This document shows positions 1-11,692 of a DNA stretch of 11,692 bases, piece after piece (within the stretch, counting starts at the first letter, position 1; the number at the start of each line of letters is the position of its first letter). The notes under the pieces are model-generated. The model had not been told where the DNA came from. It did no database searches and worked only from the letters and a program-made list of their open reading frames with translations. This stretch comes from Promethearchaeota archaeon (GTDB lineage Archaea > Asgardarchaeota > Lokiarchaeia > Sigyniarchaeales > SOKP01). Where the stretch lies: assembly GCA_048938025.1 (NCBI GenBank), contig JBHLMP010000073.1, positions 1 through 11,692 on the forward strand, given 5' to 3'. A program made the translations under genes and the position numbers.

Positions 1-969
1 GAGCAGGGAAATTTTATATCAATTACTAATTTGAATCCAAGATTAAGCAATCTTGATTCTACAACAATAGATTTATTCGCTACTTCTAGTTCAAATATCA
101 CTAAAAAAGATAAAACAATCCAATTAGAAGTTGAATTAGTTAAAAATATTAAACAACTTCAGAGTAGACAAAATATCGTCTCATTTAAAGGAATAATATA
201 TTCAATAGATGACTTAAAAAAAGTTGCTTTAAAAACAGGTGAAGAAATCTCTTTATTAAATATTATAGTAAGTGATGAGACAGATGCAATAAGGGTTAGT
301 GTTTGGGGAGATAAAGCAGAGGAGCTATCTAACTCCCTAACAGTTGGTCAAGGAATAGTATTAAAAAATGTTACACTTAAAACTTTTGTTGGTAGAAAAC
401 AAGCCTCTTTTAGAAAGGATTCAATTTTAGAGAAAATTGATCTAAAGATTTCAAATCTTAAAAGTATAGATTCAACAATAAATATGACCAAGAATGATTT
501 TACAAGAAATTATACAAAAATTAATAAGATTAATTCTTCGAATTTTTACGAAATTAAAGGTATTATAAATGAAGATTTAACAGATAGAAATATAATAATC
601 TATGATGCATGTTCAAAGTGTTTAAAAAAGATTGATAGATGTATGTGTCAAGAGAGTAATACCCCTATAAAACGGATGATTATTAAAGCATTTGTAGACG
701 ATGATAGTGAAACTATCAAAACTACTTTTTTTAATGAACAAGCTGAAAAATTAATTGAGAAAAATGCTGAAGAAGTTTCTAAAAACCTCAACAATAAAGA
801 TTTCTTGGAAGATTTATCAAAAAAATTAAGATCTAAGAATTTAGTAATTAAAGGTAAAGCAGAATTCAATGATTATAATAATATTAACCGATATGAATTA
901 AGAGTTAATGATTTTCAAGATATGAATGTTACTGAAGAATTAGAGGAAATAATGAAAGAAATAGAATGA
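1..969 (+). CDS. rpa: Replication protein A (ssDNA-binding, multi-OB-fold), 5'-truncated by the window edge
   Basis: Frame is open from base 1, so the TTG at 31 is probably internal. Two OB-fold signatures (IVSDETDAIRVSVWGDKAE; FVDDDSETIKTTFFNEQAEKLI). The C-terminal OB fold carries a Zn motif (YDACSKC..CMC), as in RPA70 DBD-C and archaeal RPA. Confidence 0.85.
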   Translation, partial: EQGNFISITNLNPRLSNLDSTTIDLFATSSSNITKKDKTIQLEVELVKNIKQLQSRQNIVSFKGIIYSIDDLKKVALKTGEEISLLNIIVSDETDAIRVSVWGDKAEELSNSLTVGQGIVLKNVTLKTFVGRKQASFRKDSILEKIDLKISNLKSIDSTINMTKNDFTRNYTKINKINSSNFYEIKGIINEDLTDRNIIIYDACSKCLKKIDRCMCQESNTPIKRMIIKAFVDDDSETIKTTFFNEQAEKLIEKNAEEVSKNLNNKDFLEDLSKKLRSKNLVIKGKAEFNDYNNINRYELRVNDFQDMNVTEELEEIMKEIE

Positions 970-1061
970 ATGTAACATTAATATTTTGAAATATACATTA
1001 TCTTCCTAATTTAAGTTATTTTATTAAATTTTCAAAATCACTACAATTTTAATGACTCTAA

Positions 1062-1997
1062 ATGAATAAGGCAGAAATTATTGGTTTAGGGGAAGTTGTT
1101 GTCGATTGGGTTACAGAATTACCATATTTCCCCAAACCAGATGAAAAGATTGATGCATTAAGCGAGAATTATTTTTCTGGAGGAGTTACAGCTAATTTTT
1201 TAGTTGCAGTTGCGAGATTAGGATGTTCTTGCGGTTTTATTGGAGCAGTTGGAGATGATTTACATGGAGATTTCTTAATTAAAGACTTTAAAAATGAAAA
1301 TGTAGATGTATCATTTATAATCAAGAAACTAGGCAAAAAAACTCCAATCAATTTTATATTTATTGCTAAAGGGGAAAAAACAATTATCCAATCACCTCAT
1401 ATGTATAATACAAAATTAAAAATTTCTGATTTAGATGAATCGTATATAGCTGAAGCAAAACTTTTGCATACAACAATAATTCATCCTGAACTTACTAAAA
1501 AAGCGATAGAAATAGCGAAAAAACATGATGTAAAGGTTAGTATAGATTTGGAACCTCAGATTGCTCAGAGAGGGTGGAAAGTTTTAAAACAGATAATTTT
1601 AGAGGCAGATATCCTAATACCTAACAAGGAAGGCGCTAATTTAATTACAAAATGTAAAACGCCTAAAAAAGCTGCTGAAAATTTAATTAAGAAAGGAATA
1701 CCAATTGTAGTTATAACTTTAGGAAGTGATGGGGCTTTAGTTGCATCAAAAGAATTTCAAAAAATAATTCCATGTTTTAAAGTTGATAATATAATAGACA
1801 CTACAGGTGCGGGTGATACTTTTAATGGAGCCTTATCAGTAGCTTATTGGATTAAAAAAATGAATTTGGAACAATCAATCATTTATGCAAATGCTGCTGC
1901 TTCATTAAAAATTCAGAGATTGGGAGCTAGAACAGGAATGCCAAGCGAAAGTGAATTAATAGCATTCTTACAAAGTAAAAATATAGTTAATTTATAA
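1062..1997 (+). CDS. PfkB/ribokinase-family carbohydrate kinase
   Basis: PfkB signature 1 (GGVTANFLVAVARLG...GAVGDD), PNKEG, VITLGSDGA and signature 2 (DTTGAGDTFNGA). Substrate cannot be determined from sequence. Confidence 0.93.
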   Translation: MNKAEIIGLGEVVVDWVTELPYFPKPDEKIDALSENYFSGGVTANFLVAVARLGCSCGFIGAVGDDLHGDFLIKDFKNENVDVSFIIKKLGKKTPINFIFIAKGEKTIIQSPHMYNTKLKISDLDESYIAEAKLLHTTIIHPELTKKAIEIAKKHDVKVSIDLEPQIAQRGWKVLKQIILEADILIPNKEGANLITKCKTPKKAAENLIKKGIPIVVITLGSDGALVASKEFQKIIPCFKVDNIIDTTGAGDTFNGALSVAYWIKKMNLEQSIIYANAAASLKIQRLGARTGMPSESELIAFLQSKNIVNL

Positions 1998-2055
1998 TTA
2001 TTTTGTATTCTAAACCAACTATAAAATTAAGTAGTAAAAATAAAAGATTAATATT

Positions 2056-2496
2056 TTATTGGTCTATTAGGCAAATATTTGCATATTCATGAGGTTTGTT
2101 TATTAAATTTCGATAATTTTTAAGAACCTTCTCAGATGATAAATCTGTGGTTTGTAAATTAAATGGCCAAACTCCTACCACAATATCACCCAATTTTTTC
2201 ACATTTCCAATTAAATAACCTACTTTTGCTCCATCTGATTTAAGTGTATATAATACAATAAAATAATAATTATATGAATATCTAGATTTTTTAGAACCAA
2301 TTACAACAACCTCTTCAATATTTTGAAAATATAAAATGTTTTGACTTAATTCACTCAATTTTTTTAGCTCCAAAATAAATTGAGTTGTAACCTTTATGGG
2401 TTTAGCTGAAGTTATATCTTTAAAGCTCAATGTTAATTTCTTATTTTCAGACCCTTGAACTCCTTTAAAGATTACTTTATAAATATTGAAATCCAT
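2056..2496 (-). CDS. Hypothetical protein (146 aa)
   Basis: ATG-initiated ORF filling the space between the PfkB gene and aIF1, co-oriented with aIF1. No motif recognised. Confidence 0.65.
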   Translation of the reverse strand: MDFNIYKVIFKGVQGSENKKLTLSFKDITSAKPIKVTTQFILELKKLSELSQNILYFQNIEEVVVIGSKKSRYSYNYYFIVLYTLKSDGAKVGYLIGNVKKLGDIVVGVWPFNLQTTDLSSEKVLKNYRNLINKPHEYANICLIDQ

Positions 2497-2571
2497 AGAA
2501 ATTAGGTAAAGATTTATTTTTTTAATTATCTAACTTTTTATATCTAGACTTCTGATGTTAATTATTATTAT

Positions 2572-2904
2572 TTAACTTTTTTTTGTTTTTTCTTGAATGA
2601 TGATATTTTCTTCAGGAAAACCTAAATCAATTAAAAACTTTTTCATCTTAAAACGATGATCTCCTTGAAGTTCAACCTGGTTATTTCTTACAGTTCCGCC
2701 TGAAGCACACTTTTTCTTTGCTTTTGTTAAGATATCTTTAAGATTAACATCAAAGTTCCCTACAAATGTTATTACTGTAACCACTCGCCCCCATTTCCTT
2801 GTGTCATTAGATATTATTATTTGTTGCTCATCAGCACTTAAGCCTTCACAAATACATAGTTCTTTTGGAAAACTACATATTGGACAAATGTCGTCGTCTT
2901 TAAT
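2572..2904 (-). CDS. sui1: Translation initiation factor aIF1 (SUI1/eIF1 homolog), 110 aa, probable non-canonical ATT start
   Basis: The ORF-track call (GTG at 2784) is internal. The frame extends 40 codons upstream as (I/M)KDDDICPICSFPKELCICEGLSADEQQIIISNDTRKWGR, followed by VVTVI...KKKCASGGTVRNNQVELQGDHR, all typical of archaeal SUI1. An in-frame TGA lies at 2916-2914. There is no ATG/GTG/TTG between it and the Cys knuckle; ATT occurs at 2904-2902 and 2889-2887. Confidence 0.9.
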   Translation of the reverse strand: MKDDDICPICSFPKELCICEGLSADEQQIIISNDTRKWGRVVTVITFVGNFDVNLKDILTKAKKKCASGGTVRNNQVELQGDHRFKMKKFLIDLGFPEENIIIQEKTKKS

Positions 2905-2913
2905 ACTCTCTTT

Positions 2914-2917
2914 TCAC
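2914..2917 (-). promoter_or_regulatory. SD-like GTGA ribosome-binding site for aIF1
   Basis: GTGA lies 9 nt before the ATT at 2904. The same motif lies 9 nt before the GTPase ATG (3170-3173) and 7 nt before the thermosome ATG (7899-7896). It matches part of the archaeal GGAGGTGA consensus. Confidence 0.55.
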
Positions 2918-2989
2918 AACCTTTAATATTAAAATCTTTTTAAAATACAATACTTGAAAAATAATAGAACAATATCTTTTAAAAATCTT

Positions 2990-3003
2990 TCACTCTAGAG
3001 TGA
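2990..3003. promoter_or_regulatory. Perfect 14-bp palindrome TCACTCTAGAGTGA, candidate operator
   Basis: Self-complementary and GC-richer than its surroundings. Lies in the divergent aIF1 / small-GTPase intergenic region. Confidence 0.35.
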
Positions 3004-3182
3004 CACTTTTATAATGTAAAAAAGAGGGAACTTAAATTTGATAAATTAAACATTAAAAATTTATCTTTCAAATTTATAATATTAGATTTAATTTATCAAG
3101 TAAAAAAATATATAAAGATTAAATTTTATTTAATATAAAAAACTGTACTCTTTATTTTAGTTTAATAAAGTGAATAATTAAT

Positions 3183-3716
3183 ATGCAAAGTTCATGGATA
3201 TTTAAAGTAATTGTGGCAGGGGCTGGTGGAGTTGGAAAAACTGCTATGATAACTCGTTATTGTACAGGGAGATTCGAACAGGGGTATAAAATGACTATAG
3301 GTGCTGGTTTTCATACAAAATCTGAAATTCTTGATACAGGAGAGGCTGTTAAAATGCAACTCTGGGACTTTGCAGGTGAAAAACGTTTTCGCGAGCTTTT
3401 GCCTGATTATTGTAAAGGGGCTAGTGGAGCTTTCATATGTTTTGATATAAGCGATTATGATACTTTTAGAGAAATTCCTGAATGGCTTAAGATCATCCGT
3501 CAAAAAGCTGGATTTATACCAATAATTCTTATGGGTATGAAATGGGATCTTCCCAACCATGAAGTCGTTTACGAAGTAGCAAATGATTATGCTGAAAAAG
3601 CTAAATGCAACCAGTGCGTATTTTGTTCTTCGAAAGGAAATATCAATATAACAGATTCTTTTCAAGCGATGGCAAAATGGTTAATTTATTATGCCACTCA
3701 AATAGATAATACATAA
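3183..3716 (+). CDS. Ras-superfamily (Rab-like) small GTPase, Asgard-type
   Basis: G1 GAGGVGKT, G2 YKMTIG, G3 WDFAGE, G4 MKWD (NKxD variant), G5 SSK. Rab-like segments KMQLWD and YCKGASG. No C-terminal CAAX/CC prenylation motif. Confidence 0.92.
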   Translation: MQSSWIFKVIVAGAGGVGKTAMITRYCTGRFEQGYKMTIGAGFHTKSEILDTGEAVKMQLWDFAGEKRFRELLPDYCKGASGAFICFDISDYDTFREIPEWLKIIRQKAGFIPIILMGMKWDLPNHEVVYEVANDYAEKAKCNQCVFCSSKGNINITDSFQAMAKWLIYYATQIDNT

Positions 3717-3807
3717 TATTAAAATACTGATTTTAATCTGGCTTCATTAAATAGTAAAAGCTAAATATTATATTTAATAAAATTATTATAAAATTGTTAT
3801 AAAAAGC

Positions 3808-4002
3808 GCCTCTGTAGCTCAGTTAGGTAGAGCACCGCCTAAACTATGTGTGCCTAAAGCACCCGGCTAAGTAAGCTTGATTTCACAGCTTCTCCGGAAG
3901 TTAACCGGGCGGTCGCATGTTCGAGATTCTGTCTGATGATATCCAGACAGAACGGGTTCCATTCAATGTTCGACCTCCGAGCAGTGGGAAAAGCCAGGGG
4001 CG
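3808..4002 (+). tRNA. tRNA-Asn(GTT) with four introns. Exons 3808-3830, 3858-3868, 3900-3925, 3959-3962, 3993-4002
   Basis: The joined exons give a 74-nt cloverleaf: GCCTCTG TA GCTC AGTTAGGTA GAGC A CCCGG CT-GTT-AA CCGGG CGGTC GCATG TTCGAGC CATGC CAGGGGC G, with discriminator G73. Each intron boundary falls at bulge-helix-bulge cut sites. CCA is not encoded. Confidence 0.9.
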
Positions 4003-4042
4003 CTTTACTTCTCTTTTCAAATAATAATAAAAAAGAGAGAAA
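4003..4042. terminator. Probable bidirectional T-rich terminator between convergent tRNA genes
   Basis: Pyrimidine/T tract after tRNA-Asn on the + strand and an A/G tract that is T-rich on the - strand. Inverted repeat TCTCTTTT (4010-4017) / AAAAGAGA (4031-4038). Confidence 0.4.
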
Positions 4043-4071
4043 TCTAAATCTTAGTATTTAGTTAAGTATAA

Positions 4072-4212
4072 TGCTCCCGCCGGGATTCGAACCCGGGTCG
4101 CGGGGGTTTTCCCTATAGATGAATGAGACAGTTCCATATGAAGGCCCCGTATGCTAAGCCCTTTCCTTCTTGATATTGGAGGGATTGGTTGGCCAGACTA
4201 CACTACGGGAGC
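4072..4212 (-). tRNA. tRNA-Glu (most likely TTC) with two introns: D-loop 21/22 (4188-4155) and anticodon loop (about 4139-4108)
   Basis: The minus strand reads GCTCCCG TA GTGT AGTCTGGCCAA^GCAT A CGGGG CC-TTC-^AC CCCCG CGAC CCGGG TTCGAAT CCCGG CGGGAGC A (75 nt), a typical archaeal Glu body. Intron 1 BHB: GGCC/GGCT helix with bulges AA^C and TA^G. Intron 2 has a TATGGA/TCTATA helix. Exact cut sites and anticodon are less certain than the Glu body. Confidence 0.82.
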
Positions 4213-4456
4213 AATTTTTTTTCTAATTAATTTTTTTTATCCTTATGATAGAGTAATCAAATAAAATTATTCAAAGAATTTGTTAAAGCAAAACTGATGT
4301 ATAATTTTGTAATTATTTTTTAATTTTAAATTTTTTCATAATCTATTTTGGATATTTAGATTTAGTAATTAATTGTCTCTTAAAATAAGTAAATTTCGTA
4401 CGAATTCATTGAAATTTCTAAATTTGATATTTTAGTAAATGTTCTATTGAATCTAA

Positions 4457-4541
4457 TGCGGGAAGGGAGATTTGAACTCCCGAACTCCTACGAGAATGGA
4501 TTCTAAGTCCACCGCCTTTGACCAGACTTGGCGATTCCCGC
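4457..4541 (-). tRNA. tRNA-Leu(TAG), intronless
   Basis: GCGGGAA..TTCCCGC-A acceptor stem, GTGGA CT-TAG-AA TCCAT anticodon arm, long variable arm CTC-GTAG-GAG, T arm GGGAG TTCAAAT CTCCC; 85 nt. Confidence 0.95.
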
Positions 4542-4713
4542 TTTTTGAGATTAAATTGTAGATTTATTATTTAATTAAAATGGTTAAGAATAAATAAATT
4601 TTATATTTGTGAACTTAATTCTAAATACGATTGAATTAAAAGAAAAAAAATTTATTATTATACATAATATAAAAATTTTATATTAATAATGAAAAAATAA
4701 GCTTGAGTTTTTT

Positions 4714-5712
4714 ATGAGTGTAAGGGATTCTTTAATTAAACATTTAACATCTATTTTACGGGCATCTGAAGGAACAATCTTAGTAGTTCTATGTGATCAA
4801 AATGGTCTATCTATAGCTAAGATTGGCAGGAAAAGTGATATAGATTTAAACCCAAATCAAATCACAAGTTTAGCATCAGCAGCGTTTTCTGCTAGTCAAG
4901 AAAATTGGGAAGATTTGAACATCAAAGATCAAGTTATTTCATTTTCATATTTTGATAAAATTTGTTTGATAACAATAAGAATTAATGAAACTCTACTTAC
5001 AATAGTTCATGATTATCATAAAGAATGGCCATTAGATGCAGACAATCTAGCTAGTTCTATGTATTATTTAAAACAAAAGTTAGGTGATTTTTTTGGGGGT
5101 GGCGGAGAATCTGAAAAAGATATTGAAGAGTTTTGCGATAAAGTTCGAAGTGCTACATATCTTTTCGGGATGGGATCAGAAGTTCCTTTTGCATCATACC
5201 TCCCTGAAAAAATTGATAAATTAGATATTTTAAATTCTATAAGCACTGTTTTGGATTCTATTCAAAATCCTATATTTATCAGATATAGTTTAGTTAACCC
5301 TTCTGGTTTGACTTTAGATGCTCGAGATGTTAGTGGGAAAAATTTACCCGTTTCTGTTGAAGCCTTTTCAGCAAATGCTAACGTCGCATTTCAAAAAATG
5401 AAAGAAGAATCAGAAGGAAGCTCAATTGGTGATCTCTTAAGTTATATAGCAATCGCCGGTCAAGATACTGAAAACTTTTATGGCCTTCTCGCAAGTCCCT
5501 CAGGAAAAATAAATTTTTCAAAATTGGAGGAGACTTCAAATATTCAGGAAATATCTTTCATTGGATTGTTTACATTAACATATGGAGGTATACCTGTTAT
5601 TAGTGAAGCAAGAAATATTATTTTTTCAATATTAGAGATTCTAGGGAAGGACCAAACGACACAGAACTTCATTGAATCTATAAATGTTCTTACTAGTTTT
5701 AAATATGATTAA
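4714..5712 (+). CDS. Roadblock/LC7 (MglB/LAMTOR-like) domain protein, probably two tandem Roadblock domains
   Basis: N-terminal pattern of helix, VVLCDQNGLSIA, ITSLASAAFSASQ...DLNI, then beta strands. A second similar unit follows (LDSIQNPIFIRYSLVNPSGLTLD ... EAFSANANVAFQKMKEE...IGDL) after a linker containing GGGG. Confidence 0.72.
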   Translation: MSVRDSLIKHLTSILRASEGTILVVLCDQNGLSIAKIGRKSDIDLNPNQITSLASAAFSASQENWEDLNIKDQVISFSYFDKICLITIRINETLLTIVHDYHKEWPLDADNLASSMYYLKQKLGDFFGGGGESEKDIEEFCDKVRSATYLFGMGSEVPFASYLPEKIDKLDILNSISTVLDSIQNPIFIRYSLVNPSGLTLDARDVSGKNLPVSVEAFSANANVAFQKMKEESEGSSIGDLLSYIAIAGQDTENFYGLLASPSGKINFSKLEETSNIQEISFIGLFTLTYGGIPVISEARNIIFSILEILGKDQTTQNFIESINVLTSFKYD

Positions 5713-5794
5713 GGTTAAAAAAAACTCATGATGTATAAGAATATAGATTTCTACTATTAGATAATAATGTAATAGTTCACTTTAAGGTTGAGCT

Positions 5795-6256
5795 ATGAAG
5801 GATGATAACTCTAAAGTATACATGCCAAAGATATATTGTCTTCATTATAGAGAGTGTGATCCAAAAAAATGCACCGCCTTAAAGCTAAAGAAATTTAACT
5901 TATTAAAAATAATAAAAAAAATCAAGGGTGTATTGAATAATTCAATTGTTCTTAATCCTTTCGCTCGAACAGAACTAAGCCTTGATGATAGGGAAAATAT
6001 CATTAGATATGGTCTTATTGTAATTGATTGCTCTTGGAATAAGCTTTTGGAATTAAATAAATTTAATTTAGGAATATCGCGTAGATTACCTCCTTTATTG
6101 GCAGCAAATCCAACAAACTATGGAAAATGGGAAAAGTTGAGTTCTGTAGAAGCATTAGCAGCTGCCTTTTTTATTACAGGTTTTTATCATTATGCAGAAT
6201 TATTGCTATCTAAATTTCATTGGGGTAGTCAATTCAAGAATTTAAATAAATTTTAA
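5795..6256 (+). CDS. tsr3: 16S/18S rRNA aminocarboxypropyltransferase Tsr3
   Basis: Motifs ECDPKKCTALKL, VLNPFA, IDCSW, RRLPPLLAANPTNYG, KLSSVEALAAA and FHWG. The start could be the second Met (MPKIY). Confidence 0.92.
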   Translation: MKDDNSKVYMPKIYCLHYRECDPKKCTALKLKKFNLLKIIKKIKGVLNNSIVLNPFARTELSLDDRENIIRYGLIVIDCSWNKLLELNKFNLGISRRLPPLLAANPTNYGKWEKLSSVEALAAAFFITGFYHYAELLLSKFHWGSQFKNLNKF

Positions 6257-6283
6257 AAAAATAAGTAATATTAAAATAAAGTT

Positions 6284-7888
6284 TTATTCTCCACTACTTT
6301 TTGAGAGTCCTGATGCGGCAATTACATCATCAATCTTCAATATCATAGACGAGACTTCTGTTGCTGATTGTATTGCTTGAGTTAAAATGGACAATGGTTC
6401 AAGAACACCTAATTCTACCATGTTATCTGGTTTTCCAGTATCAATATTTACTCCATTGGCCTTACCGTCATCATTTTCATGTTTTGATCTTAATTCAACA
6501 ATTAAATCAACTGGATTATGACCCGCATTTTCTACTAATGTTTTTGGTATAATCTCCAAAGCATTAGCATAAATTTCTATTGCTAATTGTTCTCTACCAC
6601 CAATTGATCTTGCATATGCCCTTAATCGCTTTGCTAACTCTATTTCCGAAGCACCTCCACCGGGTAAAATATAAGGTAATTCTATTGCTGCTTTTACTAC
6701 TGATAATGCATCATGTAACATTCTTTCTGCTTCATCGACCACATGTTCGATTCCTGCTCTAATTAATATACTAACAGCTTTAGGATCAGCACATTCTGAA
6801 ACAAAGATCATATTGTCATCTCCGATTTTCTTTTCTTCAACTTTTCCAGAATTTCCTAAATCTTGTGGGGTAATCTCCAAAATGTTGTTAATAATTCTTG
6901 CATTAGTAGCTCTTGCTAGCTTTTCCATATCAGATCTTTTAACTCTCCTTATAGTAATTATATTCTCTTTAGCAAGGAAGTTCTGAGCTTTATCATCAAC
7001 TCCTTTCTGGCAAAATACAACGTTAGCACCTACTTCTTTTAACTTCGCAACGCGATTTTTTAACATATTTGCTTCTTCTTCAAGAAATTTATTTATTTGA
7101 TTAGGGGTCTGAACTCTTATTTCAGCATCAAACTCTGTTTTCTCAACTTCTAAAGAAGAGTTTATTAAGGCAATTTTTGCATTTTTAAGAGATTTTGGCA
7201 TCATTGGATGAACTATTTCTTTATCAACAATAACTCCATCAATAATATTAGAGTCTAAAAGGCTTTTTCCTTCTTTTTTGATTATCTGGATTTGATCCAA
7301 ATCAATGATATTATTATCACCACGTTGTTCTTTAATTTGATTAACTGCTTTTACAGCGATGTCAGCAAAATGCCTTTTTACACCCGTTATTAATTTACTA
7401 TTCATTGATGTTTCTGCAACTTTAGTTAATATGTTATTGTCATTGATATCTATTTTGATTGCGAGATCCTGTAAAATTTCTTTGCTTTTTAAAAGAGCCT
7501 TTCTATACCCTCTAAAAATTATTGTAGGATGTACTGATTGTTCCATTAATTCTTCTGCAAGATTTAATAATTCTCCAGAGATAATCACACTAGTCGTTGT
7601 ACCATCTCCAACTTTTTCATCTTGAGTTTTTGCCACTTCAACTATCATTTTAGCTGCTGGATGTTCAACATCAATAGTATCTAAGATGGTTGCTCCATCA
7701 TTTGTTATAGTGACATCTCCTAATGAATCAACAAGCATTTTATCCATGCCTTTTGGTCCTAATGTAGTTCTTACTGCTTCTGCTACTGCTTTTGCGGCGG
7801 CTATATTATTTTTTTGGGCATCTTTTCCACGTTTTCTTTCGGTCCCTTCTTTTAAAATGAGGATAGGAACACCTGACAATTGTGCCAT
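6284..7888 (-). CDS. ths: Thermosome subunit (group II chaperonin)
   Basis: [37 protein letters not shown] and ILKIDDVI motifs. Confidence 0.97.
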
Positions 7889-8000
7889 TTAATTTTCACT
7901 TTCAAAATTTTAATTTTAATTATTTTCTTTATATAGATCTCTAAGTCATAAAATTAAAAAAGTTTACGAAAAATAACTAGTATTAAGTTGTTTAAAGGAT

Positions 8001-8020
8001 ATATTCAAAATTTTGAATAT
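8001..8020. promoter_or_regulatory. Perfect 20-bp palindrome ATATTCAAAATTTTGAATAT upstream of the thermosome gene
   Basis: Fully self-complementary, in the divergent thermosome / ATPase intergenic region. The sub-motif TTCAAAATTTT recurs at 7901-7911. Confidence 0.4.
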
Positions 8021-8264
8021 CTTATCTCTTTCTTTAAATAAAAAGAATAAGATTAGGAACAAACTTACTGTTATTATTTAGAGATTTAAAGACTTAATGA
8101 ATACGGGTTTTTTATCCTTTTATTGTAATAATAAAAATATAAACAAATTTTTACCCAAATTAAAATTTATATTAATTTTTTATGGAATTTGATTCTTTCT
8201 CTCTTTAAATTTTAGGGTTGTTTTTAATCTCAAAGAATTATTTATTGATAAATGAGATATAATT

Positions 8265-10046
8265 TTGATATCTTTTTTAATATTTTTGATTATAAGTTTA
8301 ATTTGTATATTAACAAATATTATTTTCTATATATACAAAAAAAGAAAATATTTGTTATATAAGATTAAAATTTTACTTTACATATTTTTTGGTTTTTCGG
8401 CAATCCTTTTTATAGTGAATATCCCTTTTTTTATTTTCAATCATTCAAATTATTTCATAGATAATGATTATGAATTTATTATTCCTATGATAATCTTTAA
8501 TCTATCAAATTTTATGTTAGGCATATCGATAATTCTATATCTTTTAACCTTTTTTCATTTTGATGAGACCATAATAGATCTTGATATACCCTCACAACTA
8601 GAATCTAAAAAGGGTAATATTCTTATAGGGAGAATTTTAAAGGGGAAAATTAAAAAAAAGAGATTTTTTTTATCTATTAAGGACCTTGAGAAACATATGT
8701 TTATTTGTGGAGCAACAGGTACGGGTAAAAGCAATTTTCTTCAAAATTTTTTAATAAATTTTACAAAAGTTCAAAACATCCCCTTTTTTTTAGTCGAATT
8801 TAAAGGAGAATACCATTTTTTACAAAAAAAAATCAATAATGTACTCATTCTTTGGCCTGGAGAGAATTTTTCAATAAATATCTTTAATCCTGAAAAATCA
8901 AATCCCATTATTCATGCTGAAAGAATATTTGATATTTTAAAAAGTGGACAGCTTCTAGATGATATTTCGGAATATTCTCCTCAAATGGAGAAAGTTTTAG
9001 TTGAAATATTGACAAAGGTTTGCCAAAGTAAAAATCTTCAAAATTGGAAAGGTTTTGAATACTTTTGTGGAGAATATCTTAAAGAAAATAAGGGGAATAT
9101 TCCGATGTTAAACCAAACTCTTATTAGTATTAAAAATCGAATAAGAAGATTTTCGACTGGACCATTGAATTCAATATTTCAAGAAAAAAAGGAAATTAAT
9201 ATAAACAAGTTATTTAAAAGAAATATAATCTTAGATTTGAGCTCAATCATTCGCTTAGGTGGTGAAAAAGAAGATGCACTATTTTTCTTAAATATGATAT
9301 TGAAATATTTATGGGATAAGAATTTATCTAAAGGAGCCTATAAATTCAAAGGTATTGAACACATTACAATAATTGAGGACGCTCAATACTTTGCTCCAAG
9401 GGATTTAATTAGAAAAAATAAACTAACTACTTATTTAGAAGATATTGCATTATTACAGAGAGGGACCGGGGAATGTTTAATTACTTTAGCCTCACGTCCC
9501 GATATCAGCAAAGAAATTCTTGCTAATAATGGAATCGTATTAACTTTCAAAAATCATATAGAAAAAGATATTATGTGTGAGTTGTTAAACCTTGATACGG
9601 AAAAAAAACATTATTTATCAATTTTAGAAGAAGGTCAGTGTATTATAAGGATAAATTCAATCAAAGAGCCCTTTTTATTAAAGATTCCACTAATAAAAGA
9701 TGAATCTCTATCCATTTCAGAGATATATAAAACTAATAGCCTAATTATGAAGTCAATTAAAAGTAATATCAATTCATTACCAAAAATTCAAAAGAAGAAA
9801 TTGTTAATTTATCTGAGAAAAATTTTTAATCTTTTTATTAGTAAAAGTAAAAAATTTTCTTCGATTTTTAATAAAAAGAACAAGAAAATAATAGAAAATC
9901 AAAACTTACCTTTTAAAAATAACCCTGTTTCAAATCAGTTGAATTTTGAAGAGAAAATTATAAATAAAAATTTAGAGAAACATTCTTTTGAAAATTTAAA
10001 ATCTTATATAAATAATTTATATAATCGGCAAATCAAAGAGGAATAA
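8265..10046 (+). CDS. Membrane-anchored HerA/FtsK/VirB4-superfamily ATPase (DUF87-like)
   Basis: About three N-terminal hydrophobic segments, then KHMFICGATGTGKS (Walker A), VEFKGEY, IILDLS, ITIIEDAQ (Walker B variant), LASRP and LEEGQCII. TTG start is uncertain. Confidence 0.8.
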   Translation: MISFLIFLIISLICILTNIIFYIYKKRKYLLYKIKILLYIFFGFSAILFIVNIPFFIFNHSNYFIDNDYEFIIPMIIFNLSNFMLGISIILYLLTFFHFDETIIDLDIPSQLESKKGNILIGRILKGKIKKKRFFLSIKDLEKHMFICGATGTGKSNFLQNFLINFTKVQNIPFFLVEFKGEYHFLQKKINNVLILWPGENFSINIFNPEKSNPIIHAERIFDILKSGQLLDDISEYSPQMEKVLVEILTKVCQSKNLQNWKGFEYFCGEYLKENKGNIPMLNQTLISIKNRIRRFSTGPLNSIFQEKKEININKLFKRNIILDLSSIIRLGGEKEDALFFLNMILKYLWDKNLSKGAYKFKGIEHITIIEDAQYFAPRDLIRKNKLTTYLEDIALLQRGTGECLITLASRPDISKEILANNGIVLTFKNHIEKDIMCELLNLDTEKKHYLSILEEGQCIIRINSIKEPFLLKIPLIKDESLSISEIYKTNSLIMKSIKSNINSLPKIQKKKLLIYLRKIFNLFISKSKKFSSIFNKKNKKIIENQNLPFKNNPVSNQLNFEEKIINKNLEKHSFENLKSYINNLYNRQIKEE

Positions 10047-10080
10047 ACTTTAAGATATTAAGATTCTATAAATAATATAT

Positions 10081-11292
10081 ATGACAATTACAGTAGGGAT
10101 CGTAGGAAAGCCTAGCAGCGGAAAAACTACTTTTTTAAATGCTGCTTGTTTAACCAATGCGAAAGTTAGCGAAATTCCCTTCACTACAATAGAGCCTAAT
10201 AAAGGTGTTACTTACATAAAAACGGATTGTGTGTGTAAAGAATTAAATGTTAGTGATAATCCTAAAAATTCTTTTTGTATTGATGGTTTTCGCTTTATAC
10301 CTATAAATTTATTAGATGTTGCTGGGTTAGTCCCAGATGCCCATAAAGGAAAGGGATTAGGTAACAAGTTCCTCAATGATTTGATTATTGCAGATGCACT
10401 TTTACATATTGTAGATATCACAGGAGCTCTTGATAAATCTGGTAAAAGGGTTTCAATAGGAGAAAATGATCCATATGAGGATATTTTATTTTTAGAGAAT
10501 GAAATAGATTTATGGTTTAAAGAGATTATTGAAAGAGAAGATTGGAAAAGATTCACGAAAGTAATTTTATCAGAAAAGAAAAAGGTTGTTGATGCATTAC
10601 ATGAGAGACTTTCAGGTATCAAAATAAATAAAAAGGAAATTATCTTAGCTTTAAAAAATTCTAAATTAGAAACTAAAAATCCATTAGCATGGACAGCTCA
10701 AGACATTTTACTGTTTTCAAAAAAGTTAAGAGCAATCTCTAAACCAATCATAATTATTGCAAATAAAATTGATAAAGAAATTAGTGAAAAAAACTTAAAT
10801 GGATTAAAGAGTAAATATAGTGGTCCAATTTTTCCATGTAGTGCTTTAGCAGAACAGGTTTTAAGAAAGTACCATGAAGATAAGATCATTGAATATCTCC
10901 CTGGATCAACAGATTTCAAAATTTTAAATCAACAAAAATTGAGCTCTAAAGAATTTGAAACATTAAACAAGATAAAGTATAAAATATTAAAACCTTATCT
11001 AGGAACAGGGATTCAAAAAGCCTTAAGTTTCGCTACATTTAATGTTTCAAATCAAATTTGTGTTTACCCTGTATCTGATATTAATACCTATTCAGATAAT
11101 AAAAATAACGTTCTACCTGATGCTTTTCTAGTTGAAAAGGGAACTTTATTAAGAGATTTTGTCAGGGATAAAATTCATAGTGATTTAGCTAAGAATTTTA
11201 TATTTGGTATTGATGCAAGAACAAAAAAACGGCTTGGAGAAAATTATGAATTAAAACACAATGATATTATTAAAATTGTGACTAACAAATGA
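10081..11292 (+). CDS. ychF: OBG-family translation-associated GTPase/ATPase (archaeal YchF-like) with C-terminal TGS domain
   Basis: GIVGKPSSGKTT, PFTTIEPNKG, DVAGLVPDAHKGKGLGNKFLNDL, ANKID, CSA, and TGS-like C-terminus (LPDAFL...IHSDLAKNF...YELKHNDIIKI). Confidence 0.92.
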   Translation: MTITVGIVGKPSSGKTTFLNAACLTNAKVSEIPFTTIEPNKGVTYIKTDCVCKELNVSDNPKNSFCIDGFRFIPINLLDVAGLVPDAHKGKGLGNKFLNDLIIADALLHIVDITGALDKSGKRVSIGENDPYEDILFLENEIDLWFKEIIEREDWKRFTKVILSEKKKVVDALHERLSGIKINKKEIILALKNSKLETKNPLAWTAQDILLFSKKLRAISKPIIIIANKIDKEISEKNLNGLKSKYSGPIFPCSALAEQVLRKYHEDKIIEYLPGSTDFKILNQQKLSSKEFETLNKIKYKILKPYLGTGIQKALSFATFNVSNQICVYPVSDINTYSDNKNNVLPDAFLVEKGTLLRDFVRDKIHSDLAKNFIFGIDARTKKRLGENYELKHNDIIKIVTNK

Positions 11293-11306
11293 ATTTGAGA
11301 GAAAAA

Positions 11307-11462
11307 TTACTCTTCTTTTGAACTTATTAGTATATATACTAGGATAATAATTAACAAAATAAGTCCAAATAATACGATTACGAAATTAAATAGTTCTATT
11401 TCATCATCTGAAGCTTGATACAAAAAAAGAAGTATTATTATCAGAAAGTAATAAAGTTTCAT
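11307..11462 (-). CDS. Putative small membrane protein (51 aa), absent from the ORF track
   Basis: ATG at 11462 to TAA at 11309-11307: MKLYYFLIIILLFLYQASDDEIELFNFVIVLFGLILLIIILVYILISSKEE. It converges on ychF with a 14-nt gap. Confidence 0.45.
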   Translation of the reverse strand: MKLYYFLIIILLFLYQASDDEIELFNFVIVLFGLILLIIILVYILISSKEE

Positions 11463-11630
11463 GTTACTAATAAATATTTAAAGAAAAATTTAAAAATTTA
11501 CTATTTTAAGTAATGACTATTTGGGGGGTTAATCCAATTTAAATAAAATCAGCAAATATTCTATTATTAATTTTAATTTAATTATCGTATTACTTTTACA
11601 GTCTTTTAATGGTAAACTTTTAAAAATAAA

Positions 11631-11692
11631 TGGACCTGACGGGAATTGAACCCGTGACCTCTTGAATGCAAGTCTTGTAAATCAAGCAAAAT
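11631..11692 (-). tRNA. tRNA-Ala(TGC), 3' part only (5' end outside the window), intron-containing
   Basis: The minus strand reads ..T-TGC-AT TCAAG AGGTC ACGGG TTCAATT CCCGT CAGGTCC A, with U70 and A73 as expected for Ala. The 5' anticodon stem strand (CTTGA) is not contiguous with the loop, which implies an intron. Confidence 0.85.

Follow-up and report, generated by a model that had tools for sequence, protein, structure and literature searches.

In some archaeal precursor tRNAs the introns are nested, and the last bulge-helix-bulge (BHB) motif forms only after the others have been processed, as summarised in Soma 2013 (PMC3728597), which cites Sugahara 2008 and Tocchini-Valentini 2009 on this point. 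The pre-tRNAs of Cyanidioschyzon merolae have up to three introns, including T-arm introns, and according to the reverse-transcription PCR results given in Soma 2013 (PMC3728597) and Soma 2014 (PMC3978253) the order of BHB removal follows motif free energy. For Asgard archaea, the available text of two studies (Valentin-Alvarado 2024, PMC11291895; preprint 10.64898/2026.10.13.758758), whose focal families are the Freyr-, Jordi- and Atabey-archaea, reports tRNA genes with up to five non-canonical introns each, and T-arm introns that often have canonical motifs and are missed by standard tools. Here we describe a tRNA-Asn(GTT) gene with four introns from a Promethearchaeota archaeon (Asgardarchaeota; Lokiarchaeia). 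It lies in an 11,692-nucleotide (nt) stretch of DNA (assembly GCA_048938025.1, contig JBHLMP010000073.1, positions 1 to 11,692; C24 in our own numbering of contigs), which we call the window. Introns 3 and 4 of this gene stand side by side in the T arm, where the 3' end of intron 3 also forms part of one strand in intron 4's BHB motif.

Two introns with a common motif strand

The gene was parsed by hand, its acceptor, D, anticodon and T elements being recognised around four interruptions (Table 1). Scans of the window with ARAGORN and Rfam missed it, their sole match being a tRNA-Leu at 4457-4541(-). When the four introns are cut out in silico by their coordinates, a 74-nt molecule results that ARAGORN reads as a canonical tRNA-Asn(gtt) cloverleaf. 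This product agrees with intron-free orthologues from the same genus (L009, L015) and a sister genus (L034), which ARAGORN likewise identifies as tRNA-Asn gtt. The T arm of intron-free orthologues has the form GCATG TTCGA(T/G)C CATGC (GCATG TTCGATC CATGC in these three), which settles where introns 3 and 4 begin and end. A cut of intron 3 one base upstream, leaving T59 rather than G59, was considered and rejected; by eye there is no central helix in that register, and the close relative L077 has G59 in an intron-free T arm.

A script scored each intron against strict BHB geometry, in which a 4-base-pair (bp) central helix is flanked by 3-nt bulges and the cut falls after the second base of each bulge. 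At exactly this geometry the central helix has 4/4 pairs in all four introns, G-U pairs being included in introns 1 and 3, and every one of the introns has a flanking helix of at least 2 bp. The motifs of introns 3 and 4 have one eight-base segment, 3955-3962, in common. Within the intron 3 motif this segment provides the last part of the central helix, then the 3' bulge and a strand of the outer helix; within the intron 4 motif the same bases provide a strand of the outer helix, a strand of the central helix and the 5' bulge. Half of that central-helix strand consists of the last two bases of intron 3 (TT). Since 3957-3962 belong to both motifs, and 3955-3956 to the intron 3 central helix and the intron 4 outer helix, the two motifs are mutually exclusive. 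The initial annotation of this DNA, made from the sequence alone, had reached the same view from the overlap at 3957-3962. A geometry script confirms it and adds 3955-3956, and all the bases then named are in place (TTCC 3957-3960, GGAA 3987-3990, TTC 3957-3959, CAT 3960-3962, ATG 3917-3919, GCATG 3915-3919 and GC 3993-3994).

The consequences that had been drawn for the removal of each intron also hold. With intron 3 removed, the central helix of intron 4 becomes AGCC/GGAA and retains 2/4 pairs. With intron 4 removed, the 3-bp outer helix of intron 3 lengthens to 5 bp, so that it comprises the full T stem, GCATG/CATGC. A further feature of this region is an 8-nt direct repeat, ATGTTCGA (3917-3924 in the T arm; 3966-3973 in intron 4), which was examined as a possible second T arm and discarded, no complementary 3' strand following it; a rough estimate makes a single repeat of this kind plausible by chance within 195 nt.

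Pairing between the introns in related genomes

Does the complementarity between introns 3 and 4 exceed what chance would give? The window gene by itself does not show this; the comparative sequence data indicate that it does. Orthologues were collected by BLAST of 41 relatives and by searching each of the family's 135 genomes for a pattern, with a match in 92. The fetched flanks contained 97 distinct anchor matches, from which 95 distinct T-arm sequences were parsed, the other two being L022, which lies at a contig end, and one copy of L043, which enters unrelated tRNA-like sequence. Intron 3 alone is present in 47 of these sequences, intron 4 alone in 23, both in 13 and neither in 12; the intron 3 position is thus occupied in 60/95 and the intron 4 position in 36/95. 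Pairs were counted in scripts by splice-site geometry, with a slid-partner control. The 12 short two-intron T arms (L006, with its 60-nt intron, being excluded) were also aligned with MAFFT, but this alignment was left unused, as it shifted the partner columns in one clade by placing the 1-nt length difference of intron 4 in the acceptor stem.

The 13 two-intron sequences represent four lineages. In the window's clade, genus g1 (L001, L002, L059, L070), intron 3 ends in TT, which faces AA, and the central helix of intron 4 has 4/4 pairs while intron 3 is in place. In genus g16 (L037-L040) the intron 3 end is TC and faces GA; here 3/4 pairs form, both of the intron-derived pairs being Watson-Crick and one internal position a C-A mismatch. 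In genus g22 (L088, L091, L093, L104) the end is AA and faces TT, with 4/4 pairs and a 4-bp outer helix, CGAG/CTCG, that extends into the acceptor stem. The fourth lineage is L006, in which AA faces AA and 2/4 pairs are formed. Once intron 3 is removed, the count becomes 2 in the g1 clade (3 in L059), 1-2 in g16, 3 with an internal mismatch in g22, and 3 in L006. Pairing is therefore better with intron 3 in place in 12/13 sequences and 3/4 lineages. A 3' strand ending in TT occurs only in the lineage whose intron 3 ends in AA, and an intron 3 ending in TC only in the lineage with the partner GA. For comparison, when the ends of intron 3 from intron-3-only genes are combined with the strands of intron 4 from intron-4-only genes, both positions are complementary in 103/1081 combinations (9.5%); at this rate a match in three of four lineages has a probability of about 0.003, by our own arithmetic and with the lineages treated as independent. 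The covariation (TT/AA, TC/GA and AA/TT) thus stands well with the earlier suggestion that intron 3 supplies part of the intron 4 splice signal, which is now backed by compensatory variation in three genera.

The genes that have intron 4 without intron 3 point in the same direction. Such genes had been expected to be absent, at least if the expectation is read at gene level; 23 distinct sequences of this kind exist, and in each of them base 59 of the exon forms its own pair with the intron. This holds for 15/15 short introns and for 8/8 long ones after removal of an intron nested within them. T59 stands opposite A or G, and G59 opposite C (L087 and L100, from genomes G111 and G135, the only ones of 161 in the class that combine G59 with intron 4 while lacking intron 3). 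G59 is opposite A, unpaired and uncompensated, in the window gene and in two of the three relatives closest to it, and in genus g16 base 59 is G or T, again with no compensation. Uncompensated variation of this kind in two-intron genes is what a transfer of the pairing to the end of intron 3 would lead one to expect. That base 59 should be free to mismatch when intron 3 is present accords with its being paired in 23/23 intron-4-only family genes. Introns 3 and 4 are both missing from the close relative L077, which carries G59 and has the same acceptor sequence and the same introns 1 and 2 as the window gene's sub-lineage; in the other four members both introns are present. When metagenome contigs were scanned for the pattern 'G59, no intron 3, something after CAT', seven matches emerged, five of them in unrelated GC-rich DNA. 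The two relevant genes are L196, which is of the compensated G-C kind, and L197, considered below.

Table 1. Positions of the tRNA-Asn(GTT) gene, its introns and the elements of the intron 3 and intron 4 motifs in the window, with neighbouring features.
Feature	Positions	Strand	Description
tRNA-Asn(GTT) gene	3808..4002	+	Acceptor 5' end to discriminator G73; five exons, four introns
Intron 1	3831..3857	+	27 nt; position 22/23, D stem; missing from orthologues such as L007, L009, L015
Intron 2	3869..3899	+	31 nt; position 33/34, anticodon loop; orthologues without it read CCCGG CTGTTAA CCGGG
Intron 3	3926..3958	+	33 nt; position 59/60, T loop
Intron 3 central helix	3920-3923/3953-3956	+	TTCG/CGGG; 2 G-U and 2 G-C pairs
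Intron 3 bulges	3924-3926 (5'); 3957-3959 (3')	+
Intron 3 outer helix	3917-3919/3960-3962	+	ATG/CAT; 3 bp
Intron 3 inner helix	3927-3935/3944-3952	+	9 bp
Segment common to both BHB motifs	3955..3962	+	GG TT CC AT
Micro-exon CCAT	3959..3962	+	4 nt; tRNA positions 60-63, between introns 3 and 4; placed from the intron boundaries
Intron 4	3963..3992	+	30 nt; position 63/64, T stem 3' strand
Intron 4 central helix	3957-3960/3987-3990	+	TTCC/GGAA; 4 Watson-Crick pairs
Intron 4 bulges	3961-3963 (5'); 3991-3993 (3')	+
Intron 4 outer helix	3955-3956/3994-3995	+	GG/CC; 2 bp
Intron 4 inner helix	3964-3965/3985-3986	+	2 bp, then a hairpin, 3967-3972/3978-3983
Ras-family small GTPase	3183-3716	+	E 5e-37; flanks the tRNA cluster
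Second interrupted tRNA gene	4072-4212	-	141 nt; acceptor GCTCCCG/CGGGAGC; T arm CCGGG TTCGAAT CCCGG; anticodon loop TTCATAT
MAPKK1_Int/roadblock-like match	4714-5712	+	Weak, below the curated cut-off; flanks the tRNA cluster

Order of intron removal

Folding energies were calculated with ViennaRNA for naked RNA at 37 C, each value in kcal/mol stating how far a fold that is made to contain the motif lies above the minimum-energy fold. In the full precursor this cost is 1.4 kcal/mol for the intron 4 motif and 3.6 for that of intron 3. After removal of intron 4 the intron 3 motif is itself the minimum-energy fold (cost 0.0), and after removal of intron 3 the intron 4 motif, with two central pairs, costs 3.4-6.9 kcal/mol. 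In mini-substrates limited to the T arm, the intron 3 motif is cheaper once intron 4 has been removed in 13/13 two-intron genes, and the presence of intron 3 makes the intron 4 motif cheaper in all eight genes of the TT/AA and AA/TT types. Precursor and mini-substrate energies agree in making intron 4 followed by intron 3 a smooth path in the folding model, as the initial annotation had supposed.

From the anatomy of the gene, the overlap, the covariation and these model energies we infer the order of cutting in the cell. In the window gene the productive route is probably the removal of intron 4 while intron 3 is still in place, followed by that of intron 3. The four BHB introns would be cut by the splicing endonuclease EndA and the ends rejoined by a ligase. 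The 3' end of intron 3, GGGTT, would take the place of exon sequence within the motif of intron 4, its TT completing the TTCC/GGAA central helix and its GG being able to pair with C65-C66 as an outer helix. In a first step EndA would excise intron 4 by way of this central helix from a precursor that still holds intron 3, the motif being supported either by the stem of intron 3 stacked alongside it or by GG/CC as the outer helix. Ligation of CAT to GC would then complete the T stem, and the canonical motif of intron 3 would become the lowest-energy fold and be cut second. The 59/60 geometry of the T arm corresponds exactly to the 37/38 geometry of the anticodon arm. This order is preferred and, because the exon base G59 cannot pair with the intron A, it is perhaps required in the window gene.

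The initial annotation went further and called the order obligatory, a claim that is too strong. Several observations weigh against a strict order, and a number of them also speak for a less likely alternative in which none is enforced: an EndA of broad specificity would cut whichever motif forms, intron 4 would leave an intron-3-less intermediate through a relaxed motif, and the overlap would be a tolerated by-product of two introns with 4 nt between them. From the outset the intron 3 motif has canonical form, with its four central pairs, 3-bp outer helix and 9-bp inner helix in the unspliced transcript. It is there before any cut, competing with the intron 4 motif for 3955-3962, though only after intron 4 has been removed does it have the 5-bp outer helix and the lowest energy of all folds. 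All of its parts are transcribed before the 3' strand of intron 4, and co-transcriptional cutting of intron 3 first is conceivable. Some of the energies count against it as well. With introns 1 and 2 removed, the intron 3 and intron 4 motifs both cost 2.5 kcal/mol; when GG/CC is forced as the outer helix, little separates the two motifs in energy (-63.1 vs -62.6 kcal/mol). In the minimum-energy fold the register is displaced by one base, and the 5' splice site of intron 4 is thereby buried. In the four genes of the TC/GA lineage, with its internal C-A mismatch, neither state is favoured (6.6 vs 5.7, 5.9 vs 7.1, 6.6 vs 7.1 and 7.2 vs 7.1).

Two genes do not fit with dependence of intron 4 on intron 3. 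In L006, which has introns 3, 4 and 5, the dependence is reversed, with two central pairs in the presence of intron 3 and three after its removal, and in the mini-substrate the intron 4 motif is dearer when intron 3 is present; judged from this sequence, introns 3 and 4 can coexist with no pairing between them. In the metagenome gene L197, G59 is opposite G, intron 3 is lacking, and intron 4 has only two central pairs after removal of the nested intron, so that two central pairs can suffice if L197 is functional. Intron 2 of the window gene, which has no outer helix, is a further example of a motif outside the canonical form. For the window's clade in particular, intron 3 ends in TT in five intron-3-only sequences and AA is the commonest state of the 3' strand, the two thus occurring separately, and their match could be an inherited coincidence.

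The enzyme also counts here. Two PF01974 matches above the cut-off (105 and 70 bits) are present in the genome, in open reading frames of 201 and 200 amino acids, at L061 1168-1773+ and L062 1438-2040-, that both match solved EndA chains; one of these paralogues looks catalytic and is closest to crenarchaeal chains. The genome encodes a two-subunit EndA. In the available text of Kaneta 2018 (PMC5829648), the EndA of Asgard archaea is an (alpha-beta)2 enzyme with an L1 insert, and is linked to relaxed motif recognition. A two-subunit EndA of broad specificity weighs against an obligatory splicing order. Against the absence of any enforced order stand the compensatory inter-intron states in three genera, set against a 9.5% null; the retention of the pair between base 59 and the intron in all 23 intron-4-only family genes, G-C compensation included; and the energetic cost of the intron-3-less substrate.

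It is very improbable that the complementarity is chance pairing of low-complexity sequence, or that the gene is decaying and no longer properly spliced. The T/C-rich strand opposite GGGAAAA does pair in several registers, and in the window's clade TTCC also makes 4/4 pairs with its 3' partner slid by -1, a point that counts against the proposed order as well. The failure of ARAGORN and Rfam to recognise the gene might likewise be taken as a sign of decay. Against this, the spliced product is a perfect cloverleaf, all four introns have complete central helices at the exact geometry, covariation is seen in other genera, and the four-intron architecture is retained in three more species (G012, G075, G088). 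Moreover, a conserved-motif search together with ARAGORN found no second Asn(GTT) gene in the genome (3.52 Mb, 29.3% GC, 88 contigs), which is 96.7% complete; a tRNA-Asn(att) called by ARAGORN on contig C15 was dismissed as a false positive, being AT-rich with 24% GC. The window gene must work, because there is no other recognisable Asn(GTT) gene in the genome. Highly unlikely, too, is a regulatory switch that would set the supply of tRNA-Asn through a stalled intermediate, which has in its favour two near-isoenergetic exclusive folds and against it the lack of a sensor element or conserved extra structure and the 12 sequences from relatives that do without either intron. Nor does the analysis lend support to the dead-end or regulatory intermediate that the initial annotation considered possible.

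Gene context and described systems

The other two introns of the gene have motifs of their own. The intron 1 motif has the central helix AGGT/GCCT (four pairs, one of them G-U), an inner helix of 4 bp and an outer helix of 1 bp. As AGCACC is repeated (3831-3836 = 3858-3863), the cut pair of intron 1 can slide with the product unchanged; the cuts 3830|3831 and 3857|3858 were chosen by BHB geometry. When the full precursor is in its minimum-energy fold, ACCGCCU (3834-3840) at the beginning of intron 1 pairs with GGGCGGU (3907-3913), which is the 3' strand of the anticodon stem with the variable region, so that in the model intron 1 would mimic the 5' strand of the anticodon stem. Intron 2 has the central helix CCGG/CCGG with 4/4 pairs and inner helices of 2 bp and 5 bp, and its motif is of the relaxed HBh' type. 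The idea that intron 1 assists the intron 2 motif was rejected, intron 2 being found in relatives with no outer helix whether intron 1 is present or not.

A second interrupted tRNA gene, parsed by eye only and missed by ARAGORN and Rfam, lies close by on the opposite strand (Table 1). The CAT of its anticodon loop denotes Met or Ile2, and about 65 nt of introns lie in its D region and anticodon stem. ARAGORN finds only 32 tRNA genes, the false Asn(att) included, in this genome (G000), despite its 96.7% completeness, which suggests that many of its tRNA genes are hidden by non-canonical introns. The tRNA cluster is flanked by genes for a Ras-family GTPase and a roadblock-like protein, both typical 'eukaryotic signature' genes of Asgard archaea, and the window also encodes a thermosome. 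Most of the named proteins nearest to this thermosome, at 82-91% identity, carry the labels Promethearchaeia or Promethearchaeota, which points to an Asgard host of a Lokiarchaeia-like class. In the closest relative, G012, the assembly breaks inside the same tRNA gene, at the end of contig C73 and the start of C72 (loci L022 and L002), and these contig ends overlap over about 127 query bases. At L043 (G060:C199) the anchor matched twice, on opposite strands and with about 500 nt between the matches. One match is a normal intron-3-only Asn gene; in the other, tRNA-Leu-like sequence takes over after 20 nt, and this copy may be rearranged or chimeric.

What could a motif strand borrowed from a neighbouring intron mean for the history of these genes? 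We suggest, tentatively, that neighbouring tRNA introns can entrench each other: once the intron 4 motif rests on the end of intron 3, base 59 would be free to drift, as in the G59 opposite A of the window gene. If so, precise loss of intron 3 would leave intron 4 unspliceable, and the pair would be kept or lost together. Such a ratchet could help to explain the build-up of introns in Asgard tRNA genes, and the persistence of introns where the exon alone cannot supply a motif; it would be a route by which introns become mutually dependent. If introns entrench each other, common motif strands should be frequent among the close intron pairs of Asgard tRNA genes, and censuses of motifs in exon context should misclassify such pairs; motif scoring that assumes exon context will misjudge closely spaced introns. 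The window gene and its relatives form a concrete, testable set of substrates for Asgard EndA, with natural compensatory variants in three genera and, as controls, intron-4-only genes, intron-free genes and the lineage with reversed dependence.

How does this arrangement compare with those already described? A classical nested case is found within the same gene family. In nine family genes (L006, L048-L050, L057, L060, L063, L066, L082), and in the metagenome gene L197, intron 4 measures 59-60 nt and contains a nested fifth intron of 30 nt. Intron 5 sits one base before the 3' end of intron 4, and its BHB uses the GGGA strand of intron 4; its central helix has 4/4 pairs, G-U included, in 9/9 family genes and 3/4 in L197. 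To judge from this layout, intron 5 must be removed first. This brings the tRNA-Asn gene of L006 to five introns. Intron 5 within intron 4 resembles introns 3 and 4 in belonging to the same gene family and in having a BHB built on the sequence of another intron. It differs in being nested; the window gene lacks intron 5, and its introns 3 and 4 are not nested but adjacent, with CCAT between them.

The nested pre-tRNAs of Crenarchaeota are similar to the window gene in having several BHB introns and repeated action of EndA and ligase; an order set by structure is known for them and probable here. In the crenarchaeal case, as quoted in Soma 2013 (PMC3728597), one intron lies inside another and the last motif can form only once the others have been processed, whereas in the window gene the introns lie side by side with a 4-nt exon between them. 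Here, unlike there, the intron that would be cut later lends its 3' end as the 'exon' strand of the one cut earlier, and the later motif is formally canonical before any cut. The hosts differ also, being an Asgard archaeon here and Thermoproteales for the crenarchaeal nested case. In C. merolae, a eukaryote, the accounts cited above concern independent motifs with no bases in common and a measured order; the motifs of the window gene have bases in common, and their order is deduced.

The Asgard studies, in their available text, take the 5' strand of a motif as exon sequence (in the preprint, half of each motif is exon-built), whereas the strand in the window gene is supplied by an intron. Splicing order and motif sharing between neighbours are not analysed in that text, and in the main text of the preprint the words 'nested' and 'sequential' occur 0 times each. 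We found no report of an adjacent pair of introns with a common strand in the literature searched, which excluded supplements and most subscription papers. We conclude that the window gene involves no new kind of machinery. An order set by structure in a multi-intron pre-tRNA is known; what appears to be new is that the introns are adjacent, and that one of them serves as a surrogate exon strand for the other.

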